17,195 nucleotides of DNA from Thermoproteaceae archaeon (lineage in GTDB: Archaea > Thermoproteota > Thermoprotei > Thermoproteales > Thermoproteaceae): positions 1 through 17,195 of the forward strand of contig JAJHRB010000033.1 of NCBI GenBank assembly GCA_020833025.1. The letters are read 5' to 3'. A program made the position numbers and the translations under genes. Below the pieces are notes generated by a model. The model did not search any database. It saw only the letters and a program-made list of their open reading frames with translations, and was not told the DNA's origin. Of the stretch, positions 1 to 16,793 are shown in pieces (the first letter of the stretch is position 1; each line of letters starts with the position of its first letter).

Positions 1-5
1 AGGTC

Positions 6-773
6 GTGGCGGGGGGCGTGAAGTACGCCGTCAGGGCCGTCACGCTCCTTGACGCCGCGGGCAGGCCCGTGGCGCGCGTGAGCGAGGCGCCGGCGTACGC
101 GAGGGTGCACTACGAGGTCTACCGCGCACTGTCGTGGCGCGTGCTCGAAAACGCCTCGACCGCGTGGCTGAGGCCCGGCGAGCGCGCGCTCCTGAGGGCG
201 CCGCCGCTCGCCGACCTCGGCAACGGCACGAGGCTGGCCTTCCGCGCGTGGAGCACGGGCGAGAGGCAGCCCGAGGTGCTGGCGGGCCCCGGGCACTACG
301 AGGCGCTCTACGACGTCTACTACGCGGTGTCCTGGAGCGCGACGAACTTCAGCCTCGTGCAGTGGGCCCCGCGCGGGGCGCCGGTCAGGCCGCCGCCGGT
401 CTCCAGGGTCTACGACGACGGAATGACGAGAGTCTACGTGGCGGGCTGGCGGCTGGAGGGCGCCGAGGTGCAGTTCCCCGTCGCGGCAGACAGGCCGCTG
501 AACTTCACGGCGGCCGAGCGGCGGGAGTTCCGCGTGGTCCTCGTGGACTGGAACGATAGGAGGGAGGCGTGGATGGCAGAGGGCGCCGAGCTGGACCAGA
601 CGCCGAGGAGGAAGTGGTTCCTCTGGTACTTCTCGCACTGGGAGCCAATGCCGCTCGTGGCCGGCCCCGGCACCTACACGGCGGTGTACCGCCTCGACGC
701 AGGGACGGTCGCCGCGCTGGCCGCGGCGGCGGCGGCAGCGCTCGCCGTCCACGCAATACTGAGGAGGAGGTAG
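6..773 (+). CDS. Cell-surface/secreted protein, C-terminal part (probably 5'-partial), with C-terminal membrane anchor
   Basis: The frame is open to the window edge. It carries a 'LGNGTRLAFRAW' repeat-like motif of the kind seen in crenarchaeal surface proteins, N-glycosylation sequons (NAS, NGT, NFS, NFT), and ends in a hydrophobic helix plus RRR. Confidence 0.65.
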   Translation: MAGGVKYAVRAVTLLDAAGRPVARVSEAPAYARVHYEVYRALSWRVLENASTAWLRPGERALLRAPPLADLGNGTRLAFRAWSTGERQPEVLAGPGHYEALYDVYYAVSWSATNFSLVQWAPRGAPVRPPPVSRVYDDGMTRVYVAGWRLEGAEVQFPVAADRPLNFTAAERREFRVVLVDWNDRREAWMAEGAELDQTPRRKWFLWYFSHWEPMPLVAGPGTYTAVYRLDAGTVAALAAAAAAALAVHAILRRR

Positions 774-774
774 C

Positions 775-807
775 GGTTCGCAATAACCCACCCCCTTTTT
801 CCCGGCC
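775..807 (+). promoter_or_regulatory. GGTT(-33) leaderless-type promoter motif for pilin 1
   Basis: GGTT at 775, CC|GTG at 808; member of the recurrent motif. Confidence 0.55.
791..800 (+). terminator. C-rich/oligo-T terminator-like tract
   Basis: CCCCCTTTTT 18 nt after the stop at 773; the motif recurs after stops. Confidence 0.45.
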
Positions 808-1212
808 GTGCGGGGCCTATCGACTGCGGCCTCCGCGGCGCTGATGCTGGCGCTGTCGGTGGCGATAGCGGTGGCGCTGTGGTGGGTGGCAGGGGGCATA
901 GTCGCCAGCACGCCGGCGCCGAGGGTGCAGCTCGACGCGTACAACAGCAAGGTCTTCGGCACGACGGCCAGGGTCGTGCTGAAGTTCGGCGAGAACGTCA
1001 AGTCCATCGACCAGATGCAGATACTGGACCAGACCGGCGCCGCGCTGGCGTCGTGCACCGCGTCGGGCGGCCCGTTCCAGGCGGGCTACAGCTACGAGTT
1101 CACGTGCAGCGGCCAGAGCGTGATCGGCGGCACGAGGCTGGTCGTGCGCGTCGCCTACACGGCGGCAGACGGCTCCAAGAAGGTCGCGAACCTGGAGTGG
1201 GCGCTGGGCTAG
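808..1212 (+). CDS. Archaeal type IV pilin (class III signal peptide), paralog 1
   Basis: MRG|LSTAASAALMLALSVAIAVALWWV: basic-Gly cleavage site followed by a hydrophobic helix. Globular beta-rich domain with a Cys pair; clearly paralogous to 1274-1696. Confidence 0.8.
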   Translation: MRGLSTAASAALMLALSVAIAVALWWVAGGIVASTPAPRVQLDAYNSKVFGTTARVVLKFGENVKSIDQMQILDQTGAALASCTASGGPFQAGYSYEFTCSGQSVIGGTRLVVRVAYTAADGSKKVANLEWALG

Positions 1213-1230
1213 CCTAGCCTAGGGAAAAAT

Positions 1231-1241
1231 CCCCCCTTTTT
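1231..1241 (+). terminator. C6T5 terminator-like tract abutting next promoter
   Basis: CCCCCCTTTTT directly followed by GGTT; the same 15-mer occurs at 9450-9464. Confidence 0.45.
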
Positions 1242-1273
1242 GGTTCCCCTTCTCGCCCGCCTCCCTTCCGGGC
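1242..1273 (+). promoter_or_regulatory. GGTT(-32) promoter motif for pilin 2
   Basis: GGTT at 1242, GTG at 1274. Confidence 0.55.
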
Positions 1274-1696
1274 GTGCGGGGCATCTCCCAGGCCGCCAGC
1301 GCGGCGCTCCTCCTCGCCCTCGCGGCGGCAGTCGCCATGGCGCTGTACCTCGCGCTCAGCGGCATGATAGCGTCCGCGCCCGTCCCGAGGGTGCAGCTCG
1401 ACCCCTACAACACCTACGTGGTGGGAAGCAAGATGTACGTCACCGTTAAGTTCGGCGCCGCCGTGGAGTCAATTGACCTCTCCGGCGTGGCCGTGCTGAA
1501 AAGCGACGGCGCCAACGTCGCGAGGAGCTGCACTTACGCCAACGGGTCGAGGCAGCCGCCCTTCATGCCCGGCGACTCCACCACGCTGGAGTGCTCGCTC
1601 TCCGGCGACCCCGGCCACCGCGTCGTCGTGAGGCTGCCCGTCATAATGCCGCGGGGCGCCAGGGCCGTCGCGCTGCTGGAGTACGTCAGGGGCTGA
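1274..1696 (+). CDS. Archaeal type IV pilin (class III signal peptide), paralog 2
   Basis: MRG|ISQAASAALLLALAAAVAMALYL; shares PRVQLDxYNxxVxG...KFGxxVxSID with pilin 1; Cys pair. Confidence 0.8.
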   Translation: MRGISQAASAALLLALAAAVAMALYLALSGMIASAPVPRVQLDPYNTYVVGSKMYVTVKFGAAVESIDLSGVAVLKSDGANVARSCTYANGSRQPPFMPGDSTTLECSLSGDPGHRVVVRLPVIMPRGARAVALLEYVRG

Positions 1697-1728
1697 TTCC
1701 AAAAGCGCACCCCCCTTTTCGGGCGCCC
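1695..1728 (+). promoter_or_regulatory. Variant (GATT, -34) promoter motif with embedded C6T4 tract
   Basis: GATTCCAAAA at 1695, CC|GTG at 1729. Confidence 0.4.
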
Positions 1729-2724
1729 GTGGTGCTCGACGCGGTCGCGCTGATAGTCCACTACCGCACCTCCAGCACCGAGGCCGCGCTCAAGGCGCTG
1801 GGGAGCCCCGAGGCGAGAAGGACGGCGGTCGCGCTGCGGCTGCGGCGCAGGAGGGGCACGCTCCTCTACCGCATCGCCGAGAGGGCGCTCTTCATGGAGG
1901 CAATGGGCGTGGACAGGAGGGTGGCGACGGAGCTCCTGGCAAGCGAGCTCAGGCTGAGGCTGGAGGACGAGCTCAGGAGGGCGAGGGAGCTCTACAACTT
2001 CGCGGTCTTCGCCGCGTCGATGGCGGTCTTCACCGCGCTGGTAGTCGGCGTGTTCCTCGCGCCGCTCTCGCCCGAGGCCGCCAGCCTGGCGTCCCTCGTG
2101 GCGGCGCTGGAGGCGGTGCCGCTGGCCGCGGTCGAGCGCCTCTGCCCGCCCGCGCGGCGGTGGAACTACGGGCTGGCGGCGGCGGCCATGGCGCCTGCCG
2201 CCCTCTCCCTCGCCGAGCCCTGGCTCTCGCTCCTGACCGTGCCGGCGGCCGCCCTCTACGGCGTCTACTACGCCCGCAGGCTGAGGGAGGCTGGGGAGGA
2301 GCTGGCGATGGCCATGAGGGGGCAGCTGACGCACGCCGAGACGGACACGGCCAGGCAGGCCGCCGAGATAATGAGGGCGGTGAGGACCTCCGGCGCCTAC
2401 GACCTGATGGCCGCCGCGGAGTACATGATGAGGGTGGCCGAGGCCCACATGAGCTCGCTGAGGAGGGAGGGGCTGATGAGGGCGCTCGTGATAGTCTCGC
2501 TGGTAATAATCGCCGCGGCGGCCGCCGCGTCGTTCTGGCCGCAGCTGGCGTACATGGCCGAGCAGGTCAAGGGGGGCCCGCTCAAGCTCTACGTCGTCAG
2601 CGTGAGGCCCGCGATCGGGGCGCTGGCGCTTGTATCAGCCGCCGTCGCCGGCAGGCTGACGGAGTCCTACGCCGCGGCGCCGCTCTACTCGCCGCTGGCG
2701 ATCGCCCAGCTCTTCGTGCCGTGA
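1729..2724 (+). CDS. Polytopic membrane protein, TadC/FlaJ (T2SS F)-like pilus platform; 331 aa
   Basis: Start reassigned from 1591 to GTG 1729 (removes the overlap with pilin 2 and fits the promoter motif). Two helical soluble segments are each followed by TM helices. It lies among pilins and upstream of the assembly ATPase. Confidence 0.55.
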   Translation: MVLDAVALIVHYRTSSTEAALKALGSPEARRTAVALRLRRRRGTLLYRIAERALFMEAMGVDRRVATELLASELRLRLEDELRRARELYNFAVFAASMAVFTALVVGVFLAPLSPEAASLASLVAALEAVPLAAVERLCPPARRWNYGLAAAAMAPAALSLAEPWLSLLTVPAAALYGVYYARRLREAGEELAMAMRGQLTHAETDTARQAAEIMRAVRTSGAYDLMAAAEYMMRVAEAHMSSLRREGLMRALVIVSLVIIAAAAAASFWPQLAYMAEQVKGGPLKLYVVSVRPAIGALALVSAAVAGRLTESYAAAPLYSPLAIAQLFVP

Positions 2725-2942
2725 ACGCGATAGTCCTCGCCCTGCTCCTCGCGGCGCTGGCCGTGGCGCTGGCGTACTACTACTTCGCGTCTGCCGTCGA
2801 GGCCGCGTCGAGGCCGCCGCAGGAGCCGTCGGTCCTCTGCGCCGTGGCGGCGGCCAGGGGCCTCTGGACGCCGAACGCGACCGGCCCGTGCGTCCTCGAC
2901 AACGAGACGGGCGCGGTGATCTACCTCTCCCCGAGCCGCTAG
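2721..2942 (+). CDS. Small single-TM protein, putative minor pilin-like; 73 aa
   Basis: GTGA overlap with the upstream stop; MNAIVLALLLAALAVALAYYYF helix; Cys pair; NAT/NET sequons. It is the 3' part of track ORF 2160..2942. Confidence 0.6.
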   Translation: MNAIVLALLLAALAVALAYYYFASAVEAASRPPQEPSVLCAVAAARGLWTPNATGPCVLDNETGAVIYLSPSR

Positions 2943-2955
2943 AGCCGCCAGCCCC

Positions 2956-2987
2956 GGTTTAACGTCGCCTTTTTCGCGCCCCCGCCC
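2956..2987 (+). promoter_or_regulatory. GGTT(-32) promoter motif
   Basis: GGTTTAAC at 2956, CC|GTG at 2988; CCTTTTT embedded at 2968-2974. Confidence 0.55.
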
Positions 2988-3278
2988 GTGCGGGGGATAG
3001 CGACGCTTCCCGTCGCGCTCGCAGTGGTGATAATCGCCGCCGCCGCGGCCTACCTGGCCTACCAGTGGCACTACGCGCAGCAGAAGGCGGCGGAGAGGGC
3101 CGCGCTCCTCGCCGCGAAGCTGAACGAGGAGCAGCAGCGCTGCCTCTCTGCGGTTGTCTCCGTCGCGGGGAACGCCACGGTCGTGGCGGTGGGAGGGGAG
3201 GCGCACGCCGGCAACTACACGGGCCTCGGCTGCTACGTTGACAGGGACGTCGTCATTCTGGTGCAATGGAGGAGGTAA
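2988..3278 (+). CDS. Putative minor type IV pilin (class III signal peptide)
   Basis: MRG|IATLPVALAVVIIAAAAAYLAY; Cys pair; NAT/NYT sequons. Confidence 0.7.
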   Translation: MRGIATLPVALAVVIIAAAAAYLAYQWHYAQQKAAERAALLAAKLNEEQQRCLSAVVSVAGNATVVAVGGEAHAGNYTGLGCYVDRDVVILVQWRR

Positions 3279-3715
3279 TAATCCTCGCGCTCTCGCTCCC
3301 GCTGGCGCTTGCCGTCATCGCGGTCGTGGGCCACGCCGTGCTGCCGGCGCTGGCCGGCGCGGCCGCCACGGCGGCCGAGTACGCGGAGCTGCGCGACGCG
3401 CCCGTGGTGCTGGTGTCCCTGGGCGGGAGGTCCGTCGCCGTCTGCGTGAACTCCACCGCGCCCAGGGCGGCTCTCGTCCACGACTGCCACGGCGGGCTCT
3501 GCCACGCGCGCGAGGCGAGGCGCGGCTGCCGCGTCAACCCCGGCGGGCTCTGCGCCGAGGGGGAGCCCGGGGGCAGGGCCGAGGGGCGGCGCGGCTGGCC
3601 CTACTGCGAGTGGTACCTCGGGCGCTACAGGGTGGGAGACGTCGTGGCGTTCGAGCTGCGGGGGGAGAGGGCCAGGGTCTTCAAGAACTACACCGTCAGG
3701 GAGCTGAGGCGCTAG
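3266..3715 (+). CDS. Single-TM, Cys-rich exported protein, putative minor pilin/accessory
   Basis: N-terminal hydrophobic helix, six Cys, overlaps the upstream gene, located in the pilus cluster. Confidence 0.55.
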   Translation: MEEVIILALSLPLALAVIAVVGHAVLPALAGAAATAAEYAELRDAPVVLVSLGGRSVAVCVNSTAPRAALVHDCHGGLCHAREARRGCRVNPGGLCAEGEPGGRAEGRRGWPYCEWYLGRYRVGDVVAFELRGERARVFKNYTVRELRR

Positions 3716-3717
3716 CC

Positions 3718-3752
3718 CGTTCCAAAACCAAAAGCGCCCCTTTTTCCCTCCC
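3718..3752 (+). promoter_or_regulatory. Variant (CGTT, -35) promoter motif
   Basis: CGTTCCAAAA at 3718, CC|GTG at 3753. Confidence 0.4.
3737..3745 (+). terminator. C4T5 terminator-like tract
   Basis: CCCCTTTTT 22 nt after the stop at 3715. Confidence 0.4.
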
Positions 3753-5165
3753 GTGAGGCTTCTGGCCGAGCTCCTCGGGCTGGGCCCCGCGAGGAGGCCG
3801 CGCGGCACTGCCTCCAGCAGGCTGTTCCTCTCCGCCGGCACGCCCACGGCGGAGTACGTTGACGTGGAGGAGGTCGAGTGGCTGGGCGTCAAGACGTCAA
3901 TTTACGTCACGGCGATGAGGACGGTCTACGTCATCGACGAGGTCGAGCTGCCCAGGGAGGCGCTGGAGGGGCTGGACGACAGGACCGCGTACTCCGCGCT
4001 CTCGCGCGCAGAGGCCGAGATGGCCAGGAGGGGCGTGGATCCCTACGCGAGCCCCAAGGAGGCCGTCGCGATAATCGAGGGGAAGCTGAGGGGGAGGCTC
4101 AGGGAGCGCGCGGGCGCGGCCGCCGCGCTCCTCTACCGCTGGTACTACGCCTACGGCACGATAACGCCGCTGCTGCTGAGCCGCCGGCTGGGCATAACCG
4201 ACGTGCTGGTGACGCTGGCGGGCAACTACGTCGAGGTGGAGTCGCACAGATACGGCGCGGGCCTGGCGACGAACCTGGAGCTCGCGGACGGGGACAGGGA
4301 GCACCTCCGCGACGTGATCTCCAGGCGCGTGGTCCCGCTCTCCGCCGCCAGGCCCTTCGCGTCCCGCTACGACGAGCAGCTCCAGGTGCGCGTCACGGCG
4401 ATAGTGCCGGACGTGGCGCCCCGGCCGGCCTACGCCTTCCGCGTGATGAACGTGACGTGGACGGCGCCGCTGTTTGTCGCGATGGGCGGCGCGGAGCCGT
4501 GGCAGATGGCCTACCTCTGCGCCCAGTGGAGGAGGTACAGGCACGTGCTGGCAGTGGGCACGCCCGGCAGCGGGAAGACCTCGCTGATAAACGCCGTGCT
4601 CTCGTGCACGCAGACGAAGAGGCGCCTGGCGATAATACAGTCCGTGCCGGAGCTGAGGGTGCCGCAGGCCTCCTTCATCGCCACCGAGCGCCACGCCTTC
4701 GGCGCGGGGATATCGGAGGTGCTGATGGCAGACCTCGTGCAGAAGTTCGGGCTGCGCGCAAACTCCGACGTGGGGATAAACGAGCTGCTGACAGAGGCGG
4801 ACACCAGGGCGTTCGTCACTGTTGCCTTCGCGGGCTTCGGCGCCGCGGCCACGCTGCACGCGACCGACGTGCAGGAGGTCCTGCTGAGGCTCAGGAGGCT
4901 CGGGGTGAGCGAGGCGGAGCTGGAGGCGCTGCTCCCCAGGCTCTACATACCCGTGATGAGGAGGGAGGTGACCGAGAGGGGGGTGAGGCGCCGCGTCGCG
5001 GCCATATACGCGCCGAGGGACGGCAGGCACGAGCCCGTGACGGAGGGGGAGGCGCTGGAGGACCCCGAGGTGAGGGAGTGGGCGAGAATAATCGCCGAGG
5101 CGGCGAGGTCGCCGGCGCTCTGGAGCCCCGAGGCGTGGGTCTCGTACCTCAGGCAGTTCGACTAG
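3753..5165 (+). CDS. Type II/IV secretion ATPase (TadA/VirB11/FlaI-like), pilus assembly ATPase
   Basis: Walker A GTPGSGKT; Asp-box-like IIQSVPEL; LRANSDVGINE (Walker B region); TLHA His-box; preceding N-domain 'DVLVTLAGNYVEVE...' typical of this family. Confidence 0.8.
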   Translation: MRLLAELLGLGPARRPRGTASSRLFLSAGTPTAEYVDVEEVEWLGVKTSIYVTAMRTVYVIDEVELPREALEGLDDRTAYSALSRAEAEMARRGVDPYASPKEAVAIIEGKLRGRLRERAGAAAALLYRWYYAYGTITPLLLSRRLGITDVLVTLAGNYVEVESHRYGAGLATNLELADGDREHLRDVISRRVVPLSAARPFASRYDEQLQVRVTAIVPDVAPRPAYAFRVMNVTWTAPLFVAMGGAEPWQMAYLCAQWRRYRHVLAVGTPGSGKTSLINAVLSCTQTKRRLAIIQSVPELRVPQASFIATERHAFGAGISEVLMADLVQKFGLRANSDVGINELLTEADTRAFVTVAFAGFGAAATLHATDVQEVLLRLRRLGVSEAELEALLPRLYIPVMRREVTERGVRRRVAAIYAPRDGRHEPVTEGEALEDPEVREWARIIAEAARSPALWSPEAWVSYLRQFD

Positions 5166-5480: not shown

Positions 5481-5737
5481 AGATCGAGAGGGAGCTGAAG
5501 AGGCGCGGGGAGGACGTAGAGCCCGAAAAGCGCCGCCTCCCAAAGACGAGGAAGGCCTTCGAGAGGCTGCTCAAGTCGCTGGCTAAGAAGTACGGCCAGC
5601 CGTACTACGTCGTGAGGAACACGGTGCAGCAGTACGGCATAACGTACACGCTGAGGGCGCTTGAGGTGACCCCGCCGCGCGAGTCAACGCTCTCCAGGCT
5701 CCTCAAGAGGCTGAGGGGGGCATGGTCTCGAAGGTAA
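5477..5737 (+). CDS. Small basic hypothetical protein, 86 aa, possibly DNA-binding
   Basis: GTGA overlap with the upstream stop, GGAGG upstream; K/R-rich (MKIERELKRRGEDVEPEKRRLPKTRK...). It is the 3' end of track ORF 3878..5737. Confidence 0.6.
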   Translation: MKIERELKRRGEDVEPEKRRLPKTRKAFERLLKSLAKKYGQPYYVVRNTVQQYGITYTLRALEVTPPRESTLSRLLKRLRGAWSRR

Positions 5738-6444
5738 TAGCCGCCGTCAGCAACAAGGGGGGCGTCGGGAAGACCACCGTGCTGGCGAGCATTGCCTTCG
5801 CGCTCGCCAAGGAAACCAGGTTCCGCGCCGTCTTTGTCGACGTGACGCCGGACGCCGCCGGCTCGGCGATGCTGGCGCCCGGCTGCCACGTCCGCTTCGG
5901 CACGTACGCGTACCTCTCCGGCGTTGACGCGATAGAGATGTGCACGCAGGAGGCAGACGGCGCCCTCGCCGACACCCTGCCCCCGGGCCCCGCGCCGCCG
6001 GGCGCCAGGCTGAGGGGAGACAGGCTGGTGAGCCTGCTGGAGATGCTGAGGGCGGAGTACAACATCGCGCTCGTGGACCTCCCCGGCGCCGACGAGGCCC
6101 ACAGCGACGTCATCGCCGCGGCCGTGAGAGCGGCGGACATGTACCTCCTCGTCGCGGAGCCCGCCAGCGTGAACGTGGCCCACGGCCTCAGGCAGAGACT
6201 GCCGCAGGACAGGCCCGTCGTCGCCGTCCTCAACAAGTTCGTTGACGGCGCGCCGGGAAAGCACGAGATAGAGGCGATGGGAACCAGCAAGTTCGGCAAG
6301 TTCGCCTACGTGATACCCTTCGAGGGCCCCGTCCACAACGCCGTCGTGCAGAGAAAGCTGCCAGTCCTGGTCAAGGGGGCCAGGCTCGTGGAGGTCGTGG
6401 ACCGCATTGCGGCAGACCTCCAGCGCCTAATACTCCACGTCTAG
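5722..6444 (+). CDS. parA: ParA/MinD-family ATPase
   Basis: Deviant Walker A KGGVGKTT near the N-terminus; VFVDVTPD; IALVDLPG; VVAVLNK; C-terminal IPFE...AVVQRKLP. Confidence 0.8.
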   Translation: MVSKVIAAVSNKGGVGKTTVLASIAFALAKETRFRAVFVDVTPDAAGSAMLAPGCHVRFGTYAYLSGVDAIEMCTQEADGALADTLPPGPAPPGARLRGDRLVSLLEMLRAEYNIALVDLPGADEAHSDVIAAAVRAADMYLLVAEPASVNVAHGLRQRLPQDRPVVAVLNKFVDGAPGKHEIEAMGTSKFGKFAYVIPFEGPVHNAVVQRKLPVLVKGARLVEVVDRIAADLQRLILHV

Positions 6445-6478: not shown

Positions 6479-8728
6479 GTGGCCTCCCGGGAGGAGGTCG
6501 CCAGGCTCGAGAGGTTCAGGCAGGGCATAGAGGAGTTCAGGCGGCGGTACCGCGACGCGCTGCCGCCGGAGGAGCTCGAGGAGTGCGTCAAGGAGGCGGC
6601 GCGGCACAATTTCACGCTGCTGAGGGCCTATGCGTGCGCGGCCGAGAGGCTCGCGAGGATGGAGAGGAAGGGACAAGTAAAGGAGAGGGAGAGAGAGGAG
6701 GGAGTAAAGGCAAGAAAGGCAGAAGAGAGGGAGACAAAGAGGGAGGAGGGGGCCGCGCGGCCCGCGCCCGGCCTCCGCGACCTGCTCGGCGCGCTCAAGC
6801 GCCTGGAGTGGCAGGGGCACGCCGCCCTCGCGTCCCTCGCCCTCTGCGCGGCGCACCCGCTCCTCTGCCTCGCCTCCCTGCCGGCGGCAGCTTTACTTTA
6901 CGCCTACCGGAAGAACACAGTGCCGATGTGGACGGACGGGGGCGCGCTGGTCTGGCGCGGGAGGCGGTACCGCTTCCACCGCGTGGAGCGCGTCTTCCGC
7001 GACGTCGTCGGGATGGGGCCGCACGAGTTCAGAAACGTGCTGCTGGCAACGACGCACGAGTACAACGGCGTGTACTACCGCGAGGGCAGGGCGTGGGTCC
7101 TGATCGCCGAGGGCAGGCCGGTCGAGGAGGCGAGGGCCGTGCTCAGGCGATTCGGCGTTGTCGTCGAGCCGCGGCCGGAGGGGCGCGCGCCGGTCGAGCT
7201 GCCGAGAGAGCGCCTCAGGCGCTACCTCCACTGGGCCCTCCTCCCGCTCGCGGCCGGCGCCGTCTCCCCGCTCGCGCTGCCGGCGGCGGCCCTCGCGTCA
7301 ATTGTGATCTACCTCCTCACCGCGAGGGACCTCGGGCACAGGCCGCGCCGGCTGAGGGCAATTAGCCGCAACGCGAGCTACTACTCGGTCCCGGACGTGG
7401 AGAGCGTGCACGCCGTCGCGCTCGCCGCGCAGCCCCTCCTGCGCGAGGCGCTCGTGGTGTGGGAGCACGACCCCGAGCACGTCATCAGGCTGGAGCGCAG
7501 GGGCGCCTGGACCGAGAGGCTCGCCTGGTGGTTCCAGTCGAAGTGGCGCCTCCAGAGGCTGGACGTGATCCAGGTGGCGAGGCAGCGCGCGATGAACCTC
7601 CACGAGCGGGGCTTCTTCGCGTGCGGCCTCGTTGACGGCAGGCCGGCCGCCTTCACGCTGGGCCGCCCGGCGGACGCCGTCCCGGCCTTCACGCTGGACC
7701 TGGCCGAGCTCACGCCCTACGCGCTCCTGCTCTCCCCGGCGGAGTGCGGGGAGGGCAGCGTGAGGCTGGGCGTTGACGACGCCGGGCGCGAGGTCTGCTT
7801 CAGGCCGGAGGACCTCCAGACTCCGCACGCCTTCCTCGTGGGCAAGACCGGCTCCGGCAAGACCACGCTGGGGATGCTCGTCGCGGCGCAGCTGGCGAGG
7901 CGCGGCGTGGTGCCCGTGGCGGTGGACCCGCACGGCCACTGGGCCCGCATCGAGAGGTGGGTCCCAGGGGTGCAGCTGGTGGACGCCAGGCGCCTCGCGC
8001 CCCCGCTCCAGCTTAGGGACCCCGGCGACGTGGACCTCCTCCTGGACGCGCTGAGGGCGGCCGGCGTTCAGGTGTTCGACGCGCACTTCACCGTGCTGCT
8101 GAGGGCGCTGGACCGCTGCGGCGCCCCGCTCCCGCTGGCCAAGCTGCCGGACTGCCTGCTCGCCGCTCGCGACCTGGCGAGCGCGTGGGCAGTGGACGCG
8201 ATCTACGGCCGCGTGCTCAGCCTGGCCAGGATGGAGGCCGCGCGCGTTGACCCCGGCAGGCCGATCGTGGTCCACACCGCCGGCAGCACCGAGCCCGACG
8301 CCCGCATGAAGCTGATACTGTGGACCGCCTGGCTGGTGAGCGAGGCGAAGGCGACGTGCCCCGAGCCGCCGTGCGGGCTGCGCTGGCTGCTCTTCATAGA
8401 CGAGGCGCACGCGCTCATGCGCGACGTCAGCCACATAGCGAGCGTCTGGCGCGAGCTGCGCAAGTTCGGCGTCGAGGCCGTGCTGGCGACGCAGAGCGTT
8501 CTCGACATACCGCAGCCGCTAATAGAGAACTCCGGCCTCAAGGCGGTCCTCGCCGTGGAGCCCGAGGCCGTGCCGGTGATCGCCCAGCGGCTCTACATAG
8601 AGCAGTCGAGGCTGCAGAGGGTCGCCTACGAGTCCCTGCCGGAGGAGCGAGTCGCCGTGATACGCGTCGAGGGCAGGTCGCCGGTTTACGCCCGCCTCCA
8701 CAGCCCGGACTCGCTGCTGGCGCGCTAG
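6479..8728 (+). CDS. Membrane-anchored HerA/FtsK-superfamily ATPase (VirB4/VirD4/CedB-like)
   Basis: HAFLVGKTGSGKTT Walker A; VAVDPHGHW; LFIDEAH Walker B; RELRKFG..LATQS motif; two hydrophobic segments in the N-terminal half. Confidence 0.8.
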   Translation: MASREEVARLERFRQGIEEFRRRYRDALPPEELEECVKEAARHNFTLLRAYACAAERLARMERKGQVKEREREEGVKARKAEERETKREEGAARPAPGLRDLLGALKRLEWQGHAALASLALCAAHPLLCLASLPAAALLYAYRKNTVPMWTDGGALVWRGRRYRFHRVERVFRDVVGMGPHEFRNVLLATTHEYNGVYYREGRAWVLIAEGRPVEEARAVLRRFGVVVEPRPEGRAPVELPRERLRRYLHWALLPLAAGAVSPLALPAAALASIVIYLLTARDLGHRPRRLRAISRNASYYSVPDVESVHAVALAAQPLLREALVVWEHDPEHVIRLERRGAWTERLAWWFQSKWRLQRLDVIQVARQRAMNLHERGFFACGLVDGRPAAFTLGRPADAVPAFTLDLAELTPYALLLSPAECGEGSVRLGVDDAGREVCFRPEDLQTPHAFLVGKTGSGKTTLGMLVAAQLARRGVVPVAVDPHGHWARIERWVPGVQLVDARRLAPPLQLRDPGDVDLLLDALRAAGVQVFDAHFTVLLRALDRCGAPLPLAKLPDCLLAARDLASAWAVDAIYGRVLSLARMEAARVDPGRPIVVHTAGSTEPDARMKLILWTAWLVSEAKATCPEPPCGLRWLLFIDEAHALMRDVSHIASVWRELRKFGVEAVLATQSVLDIPQPLIENSGLKAVLAVEPEAVPVIAQRLYIEQSRLQRVAYESLPEERVAVIRVEGRSPVYARLHSPDSLLAR

Positions 8729-8738
8729 CCCTCCCCCT

Positions 8739-8840
8739 CAGGGCCCTACTCGCAGGGGTCTGAGGCAGGGGTCTTCAGCGCAGGGGTGATTACCCCTGCG
8801 GTGAATTCCCCTGCGCCAGGCCCCTGATGCAGGGCCCCTG
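8739..8840. repeat. Palindromic array A: four CAGGG(G) boxes facing four (C)CCCTG boxes
   Basis: Forward boxes start at 8739, 8753, 8766, 8781; reverse boxes end at 8798, 8813, 8826, 8840. Every pair sums to 17579, giving exact dyad symmetry at 8789/8790. Confidence 0.9.
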
Positions 8841-8860
8841 AGAGGGCGCGGGCCGGGGCC

Positions 8861-8892
8861 GGTTGAACGCGCCCGCTGGCGCTCCCGCCGCC
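8861..8892 (+). promoter_or_regulatory. GGTT(-32) promoter motif for wHTH gene
   Basis: GGTTGAAC at 8861, CC|ATG at 8893. Confidence 0.55.
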
Positions 8893-9423
8893 ATGGGTGA
8901 GGAGGTGCGCGAGAGGGCGCGCAGGGCGTTAGAGCTGCTGTCGCGCGGCTGCCTCACGAGCGGGGCGCTGGCGCAGATGCTCGGCGTTTCCGACTCCCGG
9001 GCGGAGTACGCGCTGAAGAGGCTGTGGCTGGAGGGCATCGCTAAGCGCTACGCGCTCGGCAGGATCGACGCGTGGTGTCTCGGGCCGCCCAGTGCCATCG
9101 GCATTCTCTGCGACGGGCGCGTGATTTACATCTCGGCGCGCCGGCTCGCACACACCGTGCTTGAGCTGCTCCGGAGCACGAAAGTGCTAAAGCCCGTCAC
9201 GCTCACGCGGCGCCTCTCTTCTCTCTCTTCAGAGGCGCCGTGCGCCGCATTCCTGAGCGCGGCTCGCGGCATTCTGCGCCTCATGCTCGACGGCTGCGCC
9301 GTTGAGGACCGGCGCAGCGGGCGCCACGTGCTGCTCATCACGGACCCGCGCTGCGCAGCCGAGCGCCTCCAGCGCCTCGCCGAGAGCGGCGCCCTGCCGC
9401 TCGACCCGATCCAGCCCCCGTAG
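8893..9423 (+). CDS. Winged helix-turn-helix DNA-binding protein, possibly tandem wHTH; 176 aa
   Basis: ALELLSRGCLTSGALAQMLGVSDSRAEYALKRLWLEGIAKR fits the wHTH pattern; start reassigned to ATG 8893 by the promoter motif. Confidence 0.7.
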   Translation: MGEEVRERARRALELLSRGCLTSGALAQMLGVSDSRAEYALKRLWLEGIAKRYALGRIDAWCLGPPSAIGILCDGRVIYISARRLAHTVLELLRSTKVLKPVTLTRRLSSLSSEAPCAAFLSAARGILRLMLDGCAVEDRRSGRHVLLITDPRCAAERLQRLAESGALPLDPIQPP

Positions 9424-9449
9424 CCCGCGCCCTCCCTCCCGCAATTCCT

Positions 9450-9460
9450 CCCCCCTTTTT
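9450..9460 (+). terminator. C6T5 terminator-like tract abutting next promoter
   Basis: CCCCCCTTTTT then GGTT; identical to 1231-1245. Confidence 0.45.
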
Positions 9461-9492
9461 GGTTGCTCGCCCGCCCTCACCCCGGGCCCGCC
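9461..9492 (+). promoter_or_regulatory. GGTT(-32) promoter motif for HerA
   Basis: GGTT at 9461, CC|ATG at 9493. Confidence 0.55.
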
Positions 9493-10824
9493 ATGGAGGG
9501 CTTCGTGATAGGCGTGCACGGCAGAGTAGCGCGCATCGCCGGCTTCTACCGCCCCGGCGCGCTGCTGGAGAGCGAATCCGGCGCGAGGATGCTGGTCGTG
9601 GGGAGGCGCAAGGCGCTCCACCCGCATTTCATGGAGGCCCTGAGATTGGCAAGAGACGGCGAGCCGGTCCCTGCCGAGCACGAGGTCGTCAGCGTCTCCA
9701 GGGCGCTGATTGTGAGCGAGCAGGTGCCGGAGCCCGGCGAGCGGGTGCGCGAGGTCGAGTGGCGCGCCGAGAGGCCCGGCGTCTACGGCCCCGAGGGCGA
9801 GGTGAACCTCTTGAAGCACGAGGGCATTCCGCACGTTACTATCATTGCGTCAACCGGAATGGGCAAGACCACGCTGGTCAAGATGCTGTTAAGGCAGGCA
9901 GCCAGCGCCGGCTTCCGGCACATCATCGTGCTGGACATGCACGACGAGTACGGCGACGTCGTGAGGGAGCTGGGCGGCGAGGCCGCGCCGCCGGTCCTGC
10001 CGCTCTGCGACCTCACGGACCACGAGCTCCTGGCCGCGACGGGCCTCCTGCGCGTAGCCACGTCGCCGATCAGGATGATGCGGTACTTGCGCTACTTCGT
10101 TCGCGCGTTCTGCAGGCTGGCGGAGAAAACCGAGATAGAGAATCTCAGGGCCGCGCTCGAGAGGGCAGGCGACGCGATGCTGCTACTTGATGTAATCAGC
10201 CCGGACGCAAAGGCGCTTGACGAGAGAGAGACCCTGACGCGCGAGTTCATAAGGGCATTGAGGGACGAGCTCGGCCCGACCGCGTTCAACGCGCTGCGCG
10301 AGGTGGTGCGCAAGGACGAAGAGAGAATGGCCGCGACGATGATGTACCTGATGTGGGCCGTGGAGCACGCCCCGCGCGTCGAGCTGCACTGGGAGCTCCC
10401 CGACATCGTTGCAATTCAGCTCCTCGAGTTCCGCAGCATCTTTGCCATGAGCGACATAGCGCTCGCCGTGATGTCGTATATATTCCGCCGCCTAATGGAG
10501 CTCAAGGAGCCGGCGCTCGTGGTGATAGAGGAGGCGCCGAGACTGCTGCAGGACGAGACGGCGCGACGCAACCTGGAGCTGTTTCTCTCGCAGGCGCGCA
10601 AGTTCGGGGTGACGGCAGTTCTGGTCAGCCAGACGCCCCACGACCTCGTGCAGAACACGAGACTCGTGCTCGGCCGCGTGCAGAACGTGGCGTGGGCGAG
10701 GAAGCTGGCAGAGCTCGCCCCGCAGATGCCCGGGGAGCTGGCAAGGCTGCTGCCGCAGCTCGGCCGCGGGGAGTTCGCGCACCTTGACGGGCAGCGCGTC
10801 GTGCCGCTGCGGGTGATCGTATGA
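9493..10824 (+). CDS. herA: HerA-family helicase/DNA translocase; 443 aa
   Basis: N-terminal beta-rich HAS-barrel-like region; HVTIIASTGMGKTT Walker A; IVLDMHDEY; VVIEEA Walker B; ARKFG..LVSQTP motif. It is a paralog rather than necessarily the core repair HerA. Confidence 0.8.
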   Translation: MEGFVIGVHGRVARIAGFYRPGALLESESGARMLVVGRRKALHPHFMEALRLARDGEPVPAEHEVVSVSRALIVSEQVPEPGERVREVEWRAERPGVYGPEGEVNLLKHEGIPHVTIIASTGMGKTTLVKMLLRQAASAGFRHIIVLDMHDEYGDVVRELGGEAAPPVLPLCDLTDHELLAATGLLRVATSPIRMMRYLRYFVRAFCRLAEKTEIENLRAALERAGDAMLLLDVISPDAKALDERETLTREFIRALRDELGPTAFNALREVVRKDEERMAATMMYLMWAVEHAPRVELHWELPDIVAIQLLEFRSIFAMSDIALAVMSYIFRRLMELKEPALVVIEEAPRLLQDETARRNLELFLSQARKFGVTAVLVSQTPHDLVQNTRLVLGRVQNVAWARKLAELAPQMPGELARLLPQLGRGEFAHLDGQRVVPLRVIV

Positions 10825-11312
10825 TTACCGCCGCGGACGCTGGCGTGCGCATCGCCAGGTGCTACTCGCTCGAGACGCGCCGCGTCGAGACCGTGGGCGT
10901 CGCGGCCATAGCCGCCGTGACGTCTTCTGGCGCTGTTGACGTGATACACTTCAGCGTCACGTCGCCGGAGACCCGCGACTTTGAGTTAGAGGTGTTGCGC
11001 CACTACAGCCGCACGGCAGAGATTTGCGTCGTTGACGGGCCGCCCGCGGCAGTCTGCAGGAAGAACGTGGGCATCATAAAGTCCGGAAACCCCGCCGCCG
11101 GCTGGCGCTGCGTTGCGCTCGGGCCGTACGCTGTCTGCGCCGACTTCGAGCTTAGCGTCGACATCGCGAGACTGGCAATCAGGCTAAACGCGCTGGCGCA
11201 CAGAGTGGCGCACGAGGCGGCAAGGACGCTGTTCCGCCGCGAGCTGCTGAGGCGCCGCTGCGTGCTGGCAGAGGGCGCCCACGTCGTGCCGGAGCTGTCG
11301 TACTACCATTAA
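10821..11312 (+). CDS. Miniature NurA-like (RNase H fold) nuclease; 163 aa
   Basis: ITAADAG, FELEVL, ICVVDGP and LAHRVAHEAA match the order of NurA catalytic motifs; ATGA overlap with herA; GGGTGA SD. Confidence 0.55.
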   Translation: MITAADAGVRIARCYSLETRRVETVGVAAIAAVTSSGAVDVIHFSVTSPETRDFELEVLRHYSRTAEICVVDGPPAAVCRKNVGIIKSGNPAAGWRCVALGPYAVCADFELSVDIARLAIRLNALAHRVAHEAARTLFRRELLRRRCVLAEGAHVVPELSYYH

Positions 11313-11316
11313 TCCT

Positions 11317-11324
11317 CCTTTTTT
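11317..11324 (+). terminator. Oligo-T terminator-like tract
   Basis: CCTTTTTT 5 nt after the stop at 11312, in a pyrimidine-rich run. Confidence 0.5.
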
Positions 11325-11346
11325 CCCTCCCCCTCTTTCTGCGCTT

Positions 11347-11447
11347 CAGGCCCCTGTAGCAGAGGTCTGGGACAGGGGTCTTCATCGCAGGGGTAACTAC
11401 CCCTGGGACGAAAGCCCCTGCCCCAGGGCCCTGCCCTCAGACCCCTG
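11347..11447. repeat. Palindromic array B, homologous to array A
   Basis: Forward boxes at 11347, 11360, 11373, 11388; reverse boxes end at 11405, 11420, 11433, 11447 (pair sums 22793, outermost 22794). The core 11373-11405 is 30/33 identical to 8766-8798. Confidence 0.9.
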
Positions 11448-11480
11448 TACCTGTGTCAGGGGGTTACTTTCAGCCCACAG

Positions 11481-11492
11481 AAAGGCTTTTAT
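11481..11492 (+). promoter_or_regulatory. Canonical-looking archaeal BRE-TATA (AAAGGC TTTTAT)
   Basis: Purine run followed by TTTTAT; the only such element I found upstream of a gene here. Confidence 0.5.
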
Positions 11493-11561
11493 GGTCTCGC
11501 AATGTCGGGCTTCGTGGCGCAGGGAACCGTCCAGACACAGGTCCAGGAGGTGCCGGTCTCG

Positions 11562-12506
11562 ATGGCGCTGAGGGAGGTCGAGGAGGTCCTCAAGAAAATG
11601 GGCTACGGCACGAAGCCCCTCTTCGAGAGCCCCTACGAGGTGAGGCGCAGGTGCGCCCGGCTGGAGGGCCGCACGCGCTGGAGGAGGACGCCCGACCTCG
11701 AGCGCGTGATGCGCCTGGTGGGCGCGTCCAACATTGCCGCCGTCCGCCTCCTCGCGCCGCACCTCGCCGAGCCCGTCTGCGTCCCGCCGCCGGAGTTCCT
11801 GCCCGCCGCCGCGGGCCTCGTGCCGGTCTACGAGGTCAGGTGCGAGGAGCCGCGGAAGTGCGCTGACGTCGCCGAGGCCGCGGCCGCCGCGCTCGGCATC
11901 GAGCTGCCGGAGATGGTCAGGCGGATGCTCCTGGGCGCCCCCGAGGAGGCGGGGCCCGCCGAGGCGCCCCCGCCACCTCCCAAGGCGGAGGCCGCCCCGG
12001 CAGCGCCGGCCCCCGAGACAGGGGCGGAGGCTCCCGAGACGGAGAGAAGGCCGGAGCCGGCCGCCCCGGAGGGCGCGTGGATAGAGCTGGTCGCCGACGT
12101 CGCCCGGCAGAGGCCGGAGGCCGTCGAGGCGGCGCTCAGGGCGGCCGGCTTCGAGTGGCTCGCGCCCGCCATCAGGGACGCCACCACGAGGAGGGCGGTG
12201 CAGGAGCTGCTCTCCGACCCCGAGCTCGCGAGGACCCTCGCCGAGGGAGGCAAGGCAATCAAGGAGCTGCTGAGGGCACCGCCGCCGGCGGCCGGGCCGG
12301 CGCCCCAGCACTGGCCTAAGAGAGACGCCGAGCTCCTAGCGAGGGAGCTCCCGCGCTCGCGCGACGCCGCGGACCTCGCCGCGAGGCTCTTCGCCGCGCT
12401 CAGCGGCTGCGACCTGGACGCCGCGAGGTCCGTCATCGACGCGCTGGCGTCGGCGCCCTGCGACCAGCTGAGGCAGCTCGGCAGGCTGCTCTCGAGGGCG
12501 CGCTGA
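11562..12506 (+). CDS. Hypothetical multi-domain protein with Pro/Ala/Glu linkers; 314 aa (alternative starts 11502, 11514)
   Basis: GGAGGTG SD at 11546-11552, 9 nt before ATG 11562; in frame with track ORF 11502..12506; the stop overlaps the next ATG. Confidence 0.65.
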   Translation: MALREVEEVLKKMGYGTKPLFESPYEVRRRCARLEGRTRWRRTPDLERVMRLVGASNIAAVRLLAPHLAEPVCVPPPEFLPAAAGLVPVYEVRCEEPRKCADVAEAAAAALGIELPEMVRRMLLGAPEEAGPAEAPPPPPKAEAAPAAPAPETGAEAPETERRPEPAAPEGAWIELVADVARQRPEAVEAALRAAGFEWLAPAIRDATTRRAVQELLSDPELARTLAEGGKAIKELLRAPPPAAGPAPQHWPKRDAELLARELPRSRDAADLAARLFAALSGCDLDAARSVIDALASAPCDQLRQLGRLLSRAR

Positions 12507-14573: not shown

Positions 14574-15151
14574 GGTACCTGCTCCTCGCGCTCTCGGAGA
14601 TATCGCGCAGGCGCTACCGCGCCGACCTCGCGGCGCCCCTCTGGCTCTCGCGCCTCCTCGGCATTCCCCCGCGCGCGGCCCTGGCGCTGGGCCTTGAGCC
14701 GCACCTCTGGCCGCTGGCCCTCTGGCGGTCCGAGCCGGAGTGCAGCGCGCCGCCCTGGCCCGACCCCTACACGGGCGCGATACTGACGGCCGTGAGGGGC
14801 GGCTGCGAGGAGGTCAGGGCGAGCCTGCAGGGCGGGCTCACGGAGAGCGAGGAGGAGAGGCACCTCGTGCTGACCGCGGCGTCGCTCGACGGGGTCAGGG
14901 TGCTCCATCCGGAGGGCGGGGCGAGGTGGCGCGTCATGCCGCTGGACGAGATACGCGGGGAGGCCGCCCGCTGGCTGGGGGACAGGCTGGCGGAGCTCTG
15001 CGCGCCGATGATAAGCCCGAAGCTCGTGGCGGAGGCGCGCGAGTACGCGGCGCTGGCGGCGCTGGGAGCGCTGAGGGCGGCCCCCGGCGGGTACTACGCG
15101 CCATCGCCGCAGCTCCTGCTCCTCGCCTGCGTTTGTTTCAACCCTTCTTGA
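14570..15151 (+). CDS. Hypothetical protein, 193 aa
   Basis: GTGA overlap with the upstream stop; start reassigned from 14378 to 14570. Confidence 0.6.
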   Translation: MRYLLLALSEISRRRYRADLAAPLWLSRLLGIPPRAALALGLEPHLWPLALWRSEPECSAPPWPDPYTGAILTAVRGGCEEVRASLQGGLTESEEERHLVLTAASLDGVRVLHPEGGARWRVMPLDEIRGEAARWLGDRLAELCAPMISPKLVAEAREYAALAALGALRAAPGGYYAPSPQLLLLACVCFNPS

Positions 15152-15197
15152 GGTTCAGCGCCGGGAGCCCCCAGCGCCCCCGGCACCTCTCCCCTAG

Positions 15198-15207
15198 CCC
15201 CCTTTTT
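15198..15207 (+). terminator. C5T5 terminator-like tract
   Basis: CCCCCTTTTT three nt before the GGTT of the next promoter. Confidence 0.45.
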
Positions 15208-15210
15208 ATC

Positions 15211-15243
15211 GGTTTTACAAGCGGGGCGCGGTCCCGGCGCGCC
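15211..15243 (+). promoter_or_regulatory. GGTT(-33) promoter motif
   Basis: GGTTTTACAA at 15211, CC|GTG at 15244. Confidence 0.55.
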
Positions 15244-15978
15244 GTGACGAAGGCCTCCAAAGAGGGGAGGGCCAGCGTGGCGGCCGTCCTCGCGGAGCTG
15301 GGCCTCTACAGCCCGGCGGGATCGGGCATCTACGTCATTTACGGCGAGCCCGCGACGGGCAAGACCACGCTCGCCGCCAGGCTGCTGGAGGAGGCCTCCC
15401 GCGAGGGCGCGCCGGCCGTCTACATCGCGACCGAGCCAAACGTGCGGCTCTACGGGCAGTGGCAGAAGATCAAGTCGCTCCTGCCGGCGAGGGTGAAGTG
15501 CGACGGCGTGGAGGTGGACGCGGTGCAGTACCACGACAGCTACACGACGCTGATGTACGCCGCGCTCAAGGCCCTGCAGTGCAAGAGTCTCGTCATGGCG
15601 ATCGACAGCGTCACGGCGCTGGCGCTCCACGAGCAGGCCCGCCGCATGGCGGAGACCGGGAGGCTGGAGATACTGCCGATAATACGCGAGGTCAGCGCGT
15701 TCGCGAACGCGTTCGCGCAGCTGATAGCAAGCCGCCTTGCCTCCGAGGAGGGGAGGCAGGCCCAGGTCTACCTCGTGGCCCAGGCGAGGGCGGCCATAGG
15801 GCAGCCCTGGCACGGCGAGCCCCTCGCGCCGAGCTTTGCCTTGCGCGCGCAGCACAACGTGGGCGCGTGCGCCCGGCTCATCGTCCTCAACAGCGGCGAG
15901 AGATTGCTCAAGGTGGTCTGGCACAGGGACGCGAGGTACGCAGGCAAGGCGGCTAAGATACGCCTGGAGCCGCTCTAG
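15244..15978 (+). CDS. RecA-superfamily ATPase (RadB/aRadC/KaiC-like single domain); 244 aa
   Basis: IYVIYGEPATGKTT Walker A; VYIATE; MAIDSVTAL Walker B; VYLVAQAR motif; no RadA N-terminal HhH domain. Confidence 0.75.
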   Translation: MTKASKEGRASVAAVLAELGLYSPAGSGIYVIYGEPATGKTTLAARLLEEASREGAPAVYIATEPNVRLYGQWQKIKSLLPARVKCDGVEVDAVQYHDSYTTLMYAALKALQCKSLVMAIDSVTALALHEQARRMAETGRLEILPIIREVSAFANAFAQLIASRLASEEGRQAQVYLVAQARAAIGQPWHGEPLAPSFALRAQHNVGACARLIVLNSGERLLKVVWHRDARYAGKAAKIRLEPL

Positions 15979-15983
15979 GGGGC

Positions 15984-15993
15984 AAAAAAGAGG
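15984..15993 (-). terminator. Terminator-like tract for the convergent minus-strand gene
   Basis: Reads CCTCTTTTTT on the - strand just after the TAG at 16002-16000. Confidence 0.5.
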
Positions 15994-15999
15994 CGGGGG

Positions 16000-16793
16000 C
16001 TAGGGCCCGCCGGCGAGCCGCTGAATCTCCTCGAAGGGCACCTCGTTGAGCTTTCTGCTCCAAATTACAACGTATCTGTTTCTGGAACAGAAGCGATATA
16101 GCGGCGTCTCGCACGGCGAAACAACAATTGGCTCGAAGGCCAAGAGCTCTCTCGTTTCGAGGTAGCGATTGACGCTAATGATATAAGGTCTCATCATGGC
16201 GGACCACGCCTCGCCGTAGCGCTCGTTCAGCACGAACGCCAGCGCATCATCAAGCATAATAGGACTAATTATGTAAGGCCGCAGAACGTACAGCAGCCCG
16301 ACCACAAGGCGGCGGATGCCCTCGTCGTAACGCTTGAGGCACAGCGGAATGCCAATCTTGCTGCCGTCAACAAACCGCTGAAGCATTCGCAATCTTAGCT
16401 TGGCCCATCTACTCACGTCTGGTGGGTAGTTTCTCTCGCTCCACTCGATCAGATCGCTCAGGGTATTCGCCGAGGCCTCCTGCAGCAAATCTAGGCTCAC
16501 CCTAAAGCCGCGCTCCACCGTGAAGTGCAAGACGCTGCTAATGTGTGACACGAGGTACCTCTCGGCGCCCTCCGGTACCCCGACTTCTAACACCTCCCCC
16601 TCCTCGCAGTCCTTGACCCTCACGAACAGCGTGTTTAGACCCTCGCGCCGCGAGACGTTATACAGCGCTCTCAAAAACGTCGTTTTCCCCGACCCCGGCC
16701 GGCCGGTTAGTGGGCCCCGCGCGGGTCTGCCCCGGCCCACCGGGGCCAGGCCGCTATTAGCTGTCTCAGTATCTTCTCGGCCCTCCCTCCCAT
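16000..16793 (-). pseudogene. P-loop NTPase split by a -1 frameshift near 16715 (pseudogene or sequencing error); about 264 aa if repaired
   Basis: ATG 16793 (GGTT at -32, CC|ATG) reads MGGRAEKILRQLIAAWPRWAGADPRGAH* (stop 16709-16707). The adjacent frame continues LTGRPGSGKTT...IMLDDA to TAG at 16000. Confidence 0.55.

Follow-up and report, generated by a model that had tools for sequence, protein, structure and literature searches.

Two palindromic arrays of about 100 bp, here called A and B, bracket a small block of genes in a 17,195-nt stretch of archaeal DNA (the window, which is contig C94 of a Thermoproteaceae metagenome-assembled genome, or MAG, of 1.56 Mb, 126 contigs, 62.6% GC and 93.9% completeness). 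Are the two arrays a pair dedicated to the genes between them, or do they belong to something larger? The original prediction took the former position, describing A and B as bracketing a cassette of a winged helix-turn-helix (wHTH) gene, HerA and NurA, and proposing for them the role of replication origin, centromere, origin of transfer (oriT) or excision sites. That pairing does not survive a search of the MAG by BLAST, pattern matching and an nhmmer family profile, which recovered at least 22 copies of the same element at 16 loci on 15 contigs. We put at roughly 0.7 the probability that A and B belong to a dispersed family of non-coding palindromic repeats restricted to one lineage, comparable to repetitive extragenic palindromic (REP) sequences and bacterial interspersed mosaic elements (BIMEs), to enterobacterial repetitive intergenic consensus (ERIC) sequences or to miniature inverted-repeat transposable elements (MITEs), which is prone to recombination and has multiplied mainly on mobile DNA. 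This reading is carried by the number of copies, by their intergenic placement and tandem register, by boxes that are conserved without covariation, by variation in unit number and by the position of homology breakpoints.

Direct reading of the arrays reproduced the boxes, spacings and 30/33 core identity that had been described for them. Array A has four boxes on its left (CAGGGC at 8739, CAGGGG at 8753, 8766 and 8781) facing four CCCCTG boxes on its right (8793, 8808, 8821 and 8835), with a spacing of 14-13-15 before the dyad and 15-13-14 after it. In array B the left boxes begin at 11347, 11360, 11373 and 11388 and the right ones at 11400, 11415, 11428 and 11442 (spacing 13-13-15, then 15-13-14), and the two cores, 8766-8798 and 11373-11405, are mismatched at 3 of 33 positions. 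The extents first given, 8739-8840 and 11347-11447, located both arrays, but the family alignment places their ends slightly wider, at about 8728-8851 and 11335-11458. As had also been claimed, each array follows a stop codon: the start of copy A abuts the TAG at 8726-8728 of the upstream gene, and copy B starts 23 nt past the TAA at 11310-11312. A repeat finder reported A and B as a direct repeat of 85 nt at 80% identity, and A alone as an inverted repeat with 55-nt arms that are 75% complementary. Over the whole window CAGGGG is not enriched (24 sites, with 17.6 expected); 13 of the 24 sites lie inside the two arrays of about 100 bp, where chance would place about 0.2. Folded as single-stranded DNA, A reaches -50 kcal/mol (z -7.7) and B a much weaker -29.6 kcal/mol (z -3.1). 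Copy B is a single unit whose outer right arm is degraded and whose hairpin potential is weaker than that of A, while the left end of copy A retains part of a 'CAGGGCCCTACTCG' junction module that is found elsewhere between tandem units.

In a pattern scan of 241 million metagenome records, the source metagenome of the MAG was the only one to yield the family, with six further copies on unbinned contigs. No match was obtained in 40 related genomes, 17 congeners included, or in IMG/VR; the representative genomes of GTDB yielded a dissimilar hairpin and no family member, and literature searches found no description of this repeat. Within the MAG, no dense box clusters exist besides the family copies, and a permissive genome-wide scan for the terminal motif returned only noise. 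Two sets of matches were set aside as chance: those in a Promineifilum MAG and on L072, which are a different GC-rich hairpin, and those on L064 and L071, which fall within an open reading frame (ORF) of 1015 aa.

Eight contigs of 70-72% GC, 44.8 kb in all, hold thirteen of the 22 copies in the MAG (about one per 3.4 kb), as against nine copies in the remaining 1.51 Mb (about one per 170 kb), these nine being on contigs of 61-66% GC. One of the loci is on a 31.8-kb contig with housekeeping genes. Judged on a gene map based on GC content at third codon positions (GC3), all mapped copies are intergenic, frequently at a distance of 0-45 nt from a start or stop codon, and their orientation with respect to genes is not consistent. 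Many lie on contigs of 2.5-4.3 kb or close to contig ends, so that the repeat is one reason for the fragmentation of the assembly. Several MAG contigs join by exact 127-nt overlaps; C94 runs on into C105, where a third copy lies about 2.9 kb beyond the end of the window, and C52, C109 and C23 chain together with five copies. When the contigs of four public hot-spring runs were mapped onto the window, those of two studies piled up several-fold on A and B, indicating that the family is multi-copy there too.

The 28 copies (22 from the MAG and six from unbinned contigs) were aligned, centered on their dyads and almost free of gaps. The unit is about 124 bp long when single, and has a period of 77-78 bp in tandem arrays. 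Its consensus consists of a left arm, YTT-CAGGSCCCTG-nnn-CAGGGGTCTG-arG-CAGGGG-yywTCakCg-CAGGGG, a loop of 6 nt, and a right arm, CCCCTG-sGayGAarG-CCCCTG-csC-CAGGSCCCTG-nnn-CAGGGSCCTG-AAR, with some ends extending to GGCGCC. The tandem forms are dimers plus one trimer; their neighboring units have outer boxes in common, and six tandem steps, in five arrays, measure 78 nt from center to center, while one measures 77 nt. There are two subtypes, and a directional junction module, CCCCTACTC-CAGGSCCCTACTCG, joins a subtype-2 unit to a subtype-1 unit in dimers on C4, C107, C108, C52 and L061, with a similar arrangement on C83. At six loci, dimers of about 200 nt have inverted GGCGCC-YYTT-CAGG termini. 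One copy contains GGGGTCTGACGC, which resembles the Tn3 inverted repeat.

Conservation over the 28 copies, whose mean pairwise identity is 76%, is highest in the boxes (94.6%), lower in the outer 10-mers (84.6%) and in the spacers (74.8%), and lowest in the loop (58.9%). The claim that box positions are kept while spacers drift, drawn at first from two arrays, is thus upheld over the whole alignment. Covariation had been named as the means of telling RNA structure from box conservation. With the full-length hairpin imposed on the alignment, 76.5% of cells are paired as against 78.5% after shuffling (499 of 500 shuffles reach the observed value), and the covariation score is 0.124 as against 0.140; no compensatory covariation is found in the arms, the RNAalifold covariation term being -0.31. 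Cells with G-T (138) are about as frequent as those with A-C (127), so that neither strand is favored as RNA. A search of Rfam returned only look-alikes of miRNA hairpins, far under threshold, leaving the family with neither compensatory maintenance of base pairs nor a match among curated RNA families. It is therefore the boxes, and not the pairing, that are conserved, and the dyad symmetry stems from conserved boxes in inverted order rather than from selected pairing. This pattern supports recognition by a protein over a selected RNA or DNA hairpin.

Comparisons between related loci bear on the behavior of the arrays. Between C4 and C105, which have 96.6% identity, the number of 78-nt units drops from two to one, as would be expected of slippage or unequal exchange within that register. 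The full copy on C121 and a remnant of two to three boxes on C89 (GCGCCCCTTCAGGGGCCTGCCGTAGGGCCCTGACAGGGGG) have a common right flank and unrelated left flanks. Similarly, the full copy on C122 and the paralogous locus on C54, which has a single CAGGGGCCTG, are alike on the right flank alone, and on L076 a flank of the C121 type and one of the C122 type are joined across one copy. From these three comparisons it follows that copies coincide with breakpoints of homology. L076, an unbinned contig of the source metagenome, is itself unusual: positions 1-4200 have 30-49% GC and give way abruptly to GC-rich DNA, in which a flank of the C121/C89 type, the repeat copy and the C122-type flank are found. 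The contig may be a chimeric assembly or may hold a low-GC island.

Excision between A and B, as originally proposed, would leave a deletion joint, and two of the four public runs do contain what looks like a joint linking 8786 to 11398. It has sides of no more than 27-30 nt, and one of its loop inserts, GTGA, produces the loop GTGATA of three other copies (C107b, C108a and C109); we therefore regard it as a mapping artefact explained by other copies that map there, and dropped both this joint and another at 8747/11435 as evidence for excision or inversion. A joint on 'opposite strands' in run X4 is a divergent copy whose match to B in reverse happens to be better than its match to A. In run X2, positions 15979-16023 of the window are swapped for 111 letters, which may be an additional copy of the family. 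A role in recombination is possible, though for the family as a whole.

Several observations weigh against reading the arrays as a dispersed, REP- or MITE-like family, for which no way of spreading was found. The original prediction had named, as the picture opposed to its own, dozens of scattered copies with target-site duplications; the scatter is largely what we find, but no duplications are seen, the flanks of 21 aligned arrays being without direct repeats beyond the element. A genome-wide search with the nhmmer profile finds family members only, and no partner element or insertion sequence (IS) that shares the repeat ends, within a MAG that is incomplete. Nor is there a REP-associated tyrosine transposase (RAYT/Y1, PF01797) in the 93.9%-complete MAG, where absence is not proof, while control genomes do score. 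Its only two tyrosine recombinase genes are on C12 and C17, contigs without copies. There is no clean pair of filled and empty sites, since C121/C89 and C122/C54 resume homology on one side only. No genome searched has relatives of the genes on the 70%-GC contigs, which could therefore be an episome binned with the MAG, and several copies on short contigs are maybe strain variants of one locus, so that the independent loci are perhaps slightly overcounted. Finally, the pattern of conservation is the only ground for inferring that a protein binds the boxes.

Among known systems, REP sequences and BIMEs offer the closest likeness. BIMEs are bound by host proteins such as integration host factor (IHF) and gyrase. 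Like them, the present family consists of intergenic palindromes in tens of copies, with tandem arrays in a fixed register, subtypes and restriction to a lineage; many intergenic copies with tandem mosaics (22 copies, dimers and one trimer) are indeed what we find. REP elements have a short palindromic unit of 20-40 bp with a GTAG or CGTC head (PMC3733652). The unit of the present family, in contrast, is 124 bp (78 bp in arrays) with eight hexamer boxes, and its canonical head position has neither GTAG nor CGTC; no RAYT/Y1 was found, and the family belongs to an archaeon, where its copies are densest on the DNA of mobile elements. Where GTAG does occur, in some copies, it is inside variant TAGGGG boxes and not a terminal head. 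ERIC sequences, also called intergenic repeat units (IRUs), and Correia-type elements are imperfect bacterial palindromes of about 100-150 bp. They are similar to our family in size, in being imperfect palindromes over their whole length, in their intergenic position and in having shortened forms; they differ in that there is no relation in sequence and no TA-type target duplication here, and in lacking the internal periodic boxes and 78-nt tandem register.

MITEs are known from this part of the archaeal tree, for instance on the Sulfolobus plasmid pTC1 (PMC4390865), and share with our family a short, non-coding, multi-copy nature and a place on the mobile DNA of hyperthermophilic Thermoproteota. 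Of the traits that would mark a MITE, namely target-site duplications, a matching autonomous IS and filled and empty sites with two-sided homology, we found none, and the element is palindromic throughout rather than only in terminal inverted repeats. It differs from MITE-like repeats of C/D-box small RNAs (sRNAs) in having no C/D boxes. Sulfolobus conjugative plasmids have a 'section B', a putative origin with characteristic sequence repeats (PMC4390865). Our arrays are likewise found on an archaeal element with TraG- and TrbE-like ATPases, at the borders of variable modules; unlike the plasmid repeats, they are many and dispersed, occur on chromosomal contigs too, and are unrelated in sequence and architecture. 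Greve et al. are said to have described, in 2004, a short palindromic motif bordering variable regions of such plasmids. An iteron origin or plasmid centromere would consist of one or a few sites per replicon, beside rep or par genes; here there are 16 loci, and the ParA gene of the window is 2.3 kb from copy A. Integron attC sites, which lie behind ORFs and divide one gene cassette from the next, are imperfect palindromes too (about 60-140 bp), but our consensus has no RYYYAAC or GTTRRRY cores, no integrase or attI is adjacent, and there is no evidence of excision.

These comparisons leave other explanations to be weighed. The arrays could be multi-site operators or insulators of the mobile element, its wHTH protein (a relative of Pyrobaculum spherical virus, or PSV, gp04) binding the boxes cooperatively in arrays between gene modules so as to control or separate their transcription, and the dispersed copies serving as sites of a plasmid regulon and not being selfish repeats. 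Such a role would account for boxes conserved without covariation, for copies at module boundaries near start and stop codons, for a copy density about 50-fold higher on the 70%-GC contigs, and for the position of the wHTH gene about 40 nt after copy A and of a weak paralogue on C43 about 100 nt after another. It is harder to reconcile with a copy just upstream in only two of five wHTH paralogues (the upstream region of a third, on C49, runs off the contig), with copies that adjoin unrelated genes (a thermopsin, TnpB, a family of 500-aa paralogues), with unit numbers that vary between near-identical contigs and remnants of one to three boxes, and with the inconsistent orientation of copies relative to genes, and we consider it unlikely. 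No more probable, in our judgment, is the proposal that the boxes are sites of a dedicated DNA-binding or recombination protein, one candidate being the PSV-gp04-like wHTH protein, encoded by an undescribed family of conjugative elements of Thermoproteales with about 70% GC, which here is met only in contigs from metagenomes, and acting in the exchange or insulation of modules, in the manner of an integron or of a BIME plus its binder.

Site-specific recombination sites, similar to attC or dif, could excise, invert or exchange modules such as the block of wHTH, ATPase and 163-aa ORF; both the window and L074 do have small blocks of co-directional genes with copies on either side, homology between related loci does break at the repeats, and the palindromes have strong hairpin potential. 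Yet the only joint from A to B is the mapping artefact described above, no recombinase gene adjoins any copy, the attC cores are not in the consensus and arm pairing is not maintained, which makes this account rather unlikely. We think it very unlikely that we are dealing with a MITE in which two multi-site transposon ends are fused back to back, with four transposase boxes per end as in Tn7- or Mu-type elements and a transposase encoded outside the MAG. Four boxes facing four, the dimers with inverted termini and the several copies on different contigs would agree with fused ends; missing target-site duplications, partner element and clean empty site speak against them, as do strict 78-nt arrays with common outer boxes, which simple insertion does not predict. 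Least probable of all, and hardly to be expected, is a structured non-coding RNA or a long hairpin in the transcript, acting as an intercistronic stabilizer or a terminator: copy A folds strongly and copies lie between co-directional genes, whereas copy B folds weakly, compensatory covariation and a strand bias of wobble pairs are both absent, the Rfam look-alikes are far under threshold, and copies occur in both orientations relative to genes.

The features of the window discussed here are collected in the table.

Table. Repeat copies A and B and the genes near them in the window
Feature	Position	Strand	Remarks
ParA-like ATPase	5722-6444		2.3 kb from copy A, another gene between
749-aa ATPase, TraD/VirD4/CedB-type coupling-protein-like	6479-8728	+	stop abuts copy A; context, not part of the repeat
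Repeat copy A	8728-8851	none	subtype-1 unit; 4 CAGGGG-type boxes facing 4 CCCCTG-type boxes; loop TGATTA
Winged-helix (wHTH) protein	8893-9423	+	starts about 40 nt past copy A
453-aa FtsK/HerA-superfamily ATPase	9463-10824	+	best family matches CedD, VirB4, TrbE
163-aa ORF, function unassigned	10821-11312	+	no family or PDB match
Repeat copy B	11335-11458	none	architecture as copy A; 77% identity to A over 100 aligned columns
334-aa ORF, function unassigned	11502-12506	+	first gene past copy B; TTTTAT box at 11487-11492

Many ORFs of the window have no match. The N-terminal domain of the wHTH protein matches PSV gp04 (PDB 2vxz, E 6.8e-5) and also PHROG 25408, and paralogues are encoded on C49 (58%), C79 (43%), C43 and C89; by inference only, this protein is a candidate binder of the boxes. 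The naming of the two genes that follow as HerA and NurA is not sustained. Scored with the HerA equivalog models, which have cut-offs of 800-970 bits, the 453-aa ATPase reaches 25-30 bits; it scores best with CedD, VirB4 and TrbE, all far under the curated cut-offs, and its nearest solved structures are HerA chains. Since the 163-aa ORF matches nothing, it lends no support to a NurA. Relatives of the ATPase, at 50-99% identity, were found only on metagenome contigs (those 99%, 87% and 57-58% identical on contigs of 21.6 kb, 10 kb and about 13 kb), while IMG/VR, phage records, 61 genomes of the order and 400 of the phylum yielded none and plasmid records nothing closer than distant matches to VirB4. 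The best reading of the window is thus a piece of a conjugative-plasmid-like or integrated element that has been poorly sampled. Run X4 contains a 94%-identical relative of the TraD-like gene, with a repeat copy directly after it.

The eight contigs of 70-72% GC (C4, C23, C49, C52, C94, C105, C107 and C109, against a genome mean of 63%) encode VirB4-, TraD- and ParA-like proteins, a thermopsin and a helicase, and probably represent an undescribed family of plasmids or integrative conjugative elements. On the contigs of 61-66% GC, several copies lie 200-760 bp upstream of members of a family of 480-510-aa paralogues. Members of this family are at L047:1728-3266 (C108), L050:1279-2733 (C122) and L051 (C7), and on C1, C54, C32 and C6; it has at least seven copies here, is multi-copy and patchy across Thermoproteales, and includes some fragments with stop codons, a pattern typical of a selfish gene. 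It has no match in Pfam, NCBIfam or PHROG, and a protein atlas gave a weak LAGLIDADG-like lead with a score of 0.85. Two TnpB genes have family sequence upstream, a full copy at 40 nt on L062 and a remnant at about 240 nt on C89; we did not adopt the repeat as an IS605 end, the other TnpB loci of the MAG having no box cluster nearby.

Some further features were seen beside copies or in the window. The motif GGGG(C)-A6-7-G-(A)GGCGGGGG, which has a T-run on its other strand, is present at 15976-16003 and in the flanks of copies on C105, C107 and L074; it recurs beside stop codons and several copies, and is likely an oligo-T terminator module. Positions 15140-15210, inside a 412-aa ORF (14740-15978), look intergenic, with a T-run and a TTTTAT box, and are swapped for 43 other letters in run X2; the true start of this gene may lie after about 15210. 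On C43, a DUF763 gene (L040:1607-2458) matches only positions 1-153 of the 319 in the profile, and its frame ends within a repeat copy at 1518-1642. A 96%-identical piece of the same gene is present on C6. The C43 gene may have been truncated at the repeat.

If A and B belong to a dispersed repeat family, as we favor, the family would have gained its copies in the mobile DNA of a single Pyrobaculum-like population from a hot spring, becoming densest on the 70%-GC contigs with conjugation-type ATPases and reaching several other loci. Its boxes would be kept because a sequence-specific DNA-binding or recombination protein recognizes them in trans; this protein would probably be encoded by the 70%-GC element, the wHTH protein beside copy A being one candidate. 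The arrays would act as hot spots for slippage and recombination, reshuffling gene modules, and any effect on neighboring genes would be secondary. In practice, it would be a mistake to take the two arrays for an origin, centromere or oriT that serves the intervening genes. Bacterial repeats of this dispersed palindromic sort have been studied well, those of hyperthermophilic archaea are poorly catalogued, and the present family is unusual in its regularity: eight boxes per unit and a tandem register of 78 nt. The way its boxes are conserved implies a protein that binds them. Its copies are concentrated on a high-GC element that is itself unusual and encodes conjugation-type ATPases, and they mark sites at which gene modules have been reshuffled.

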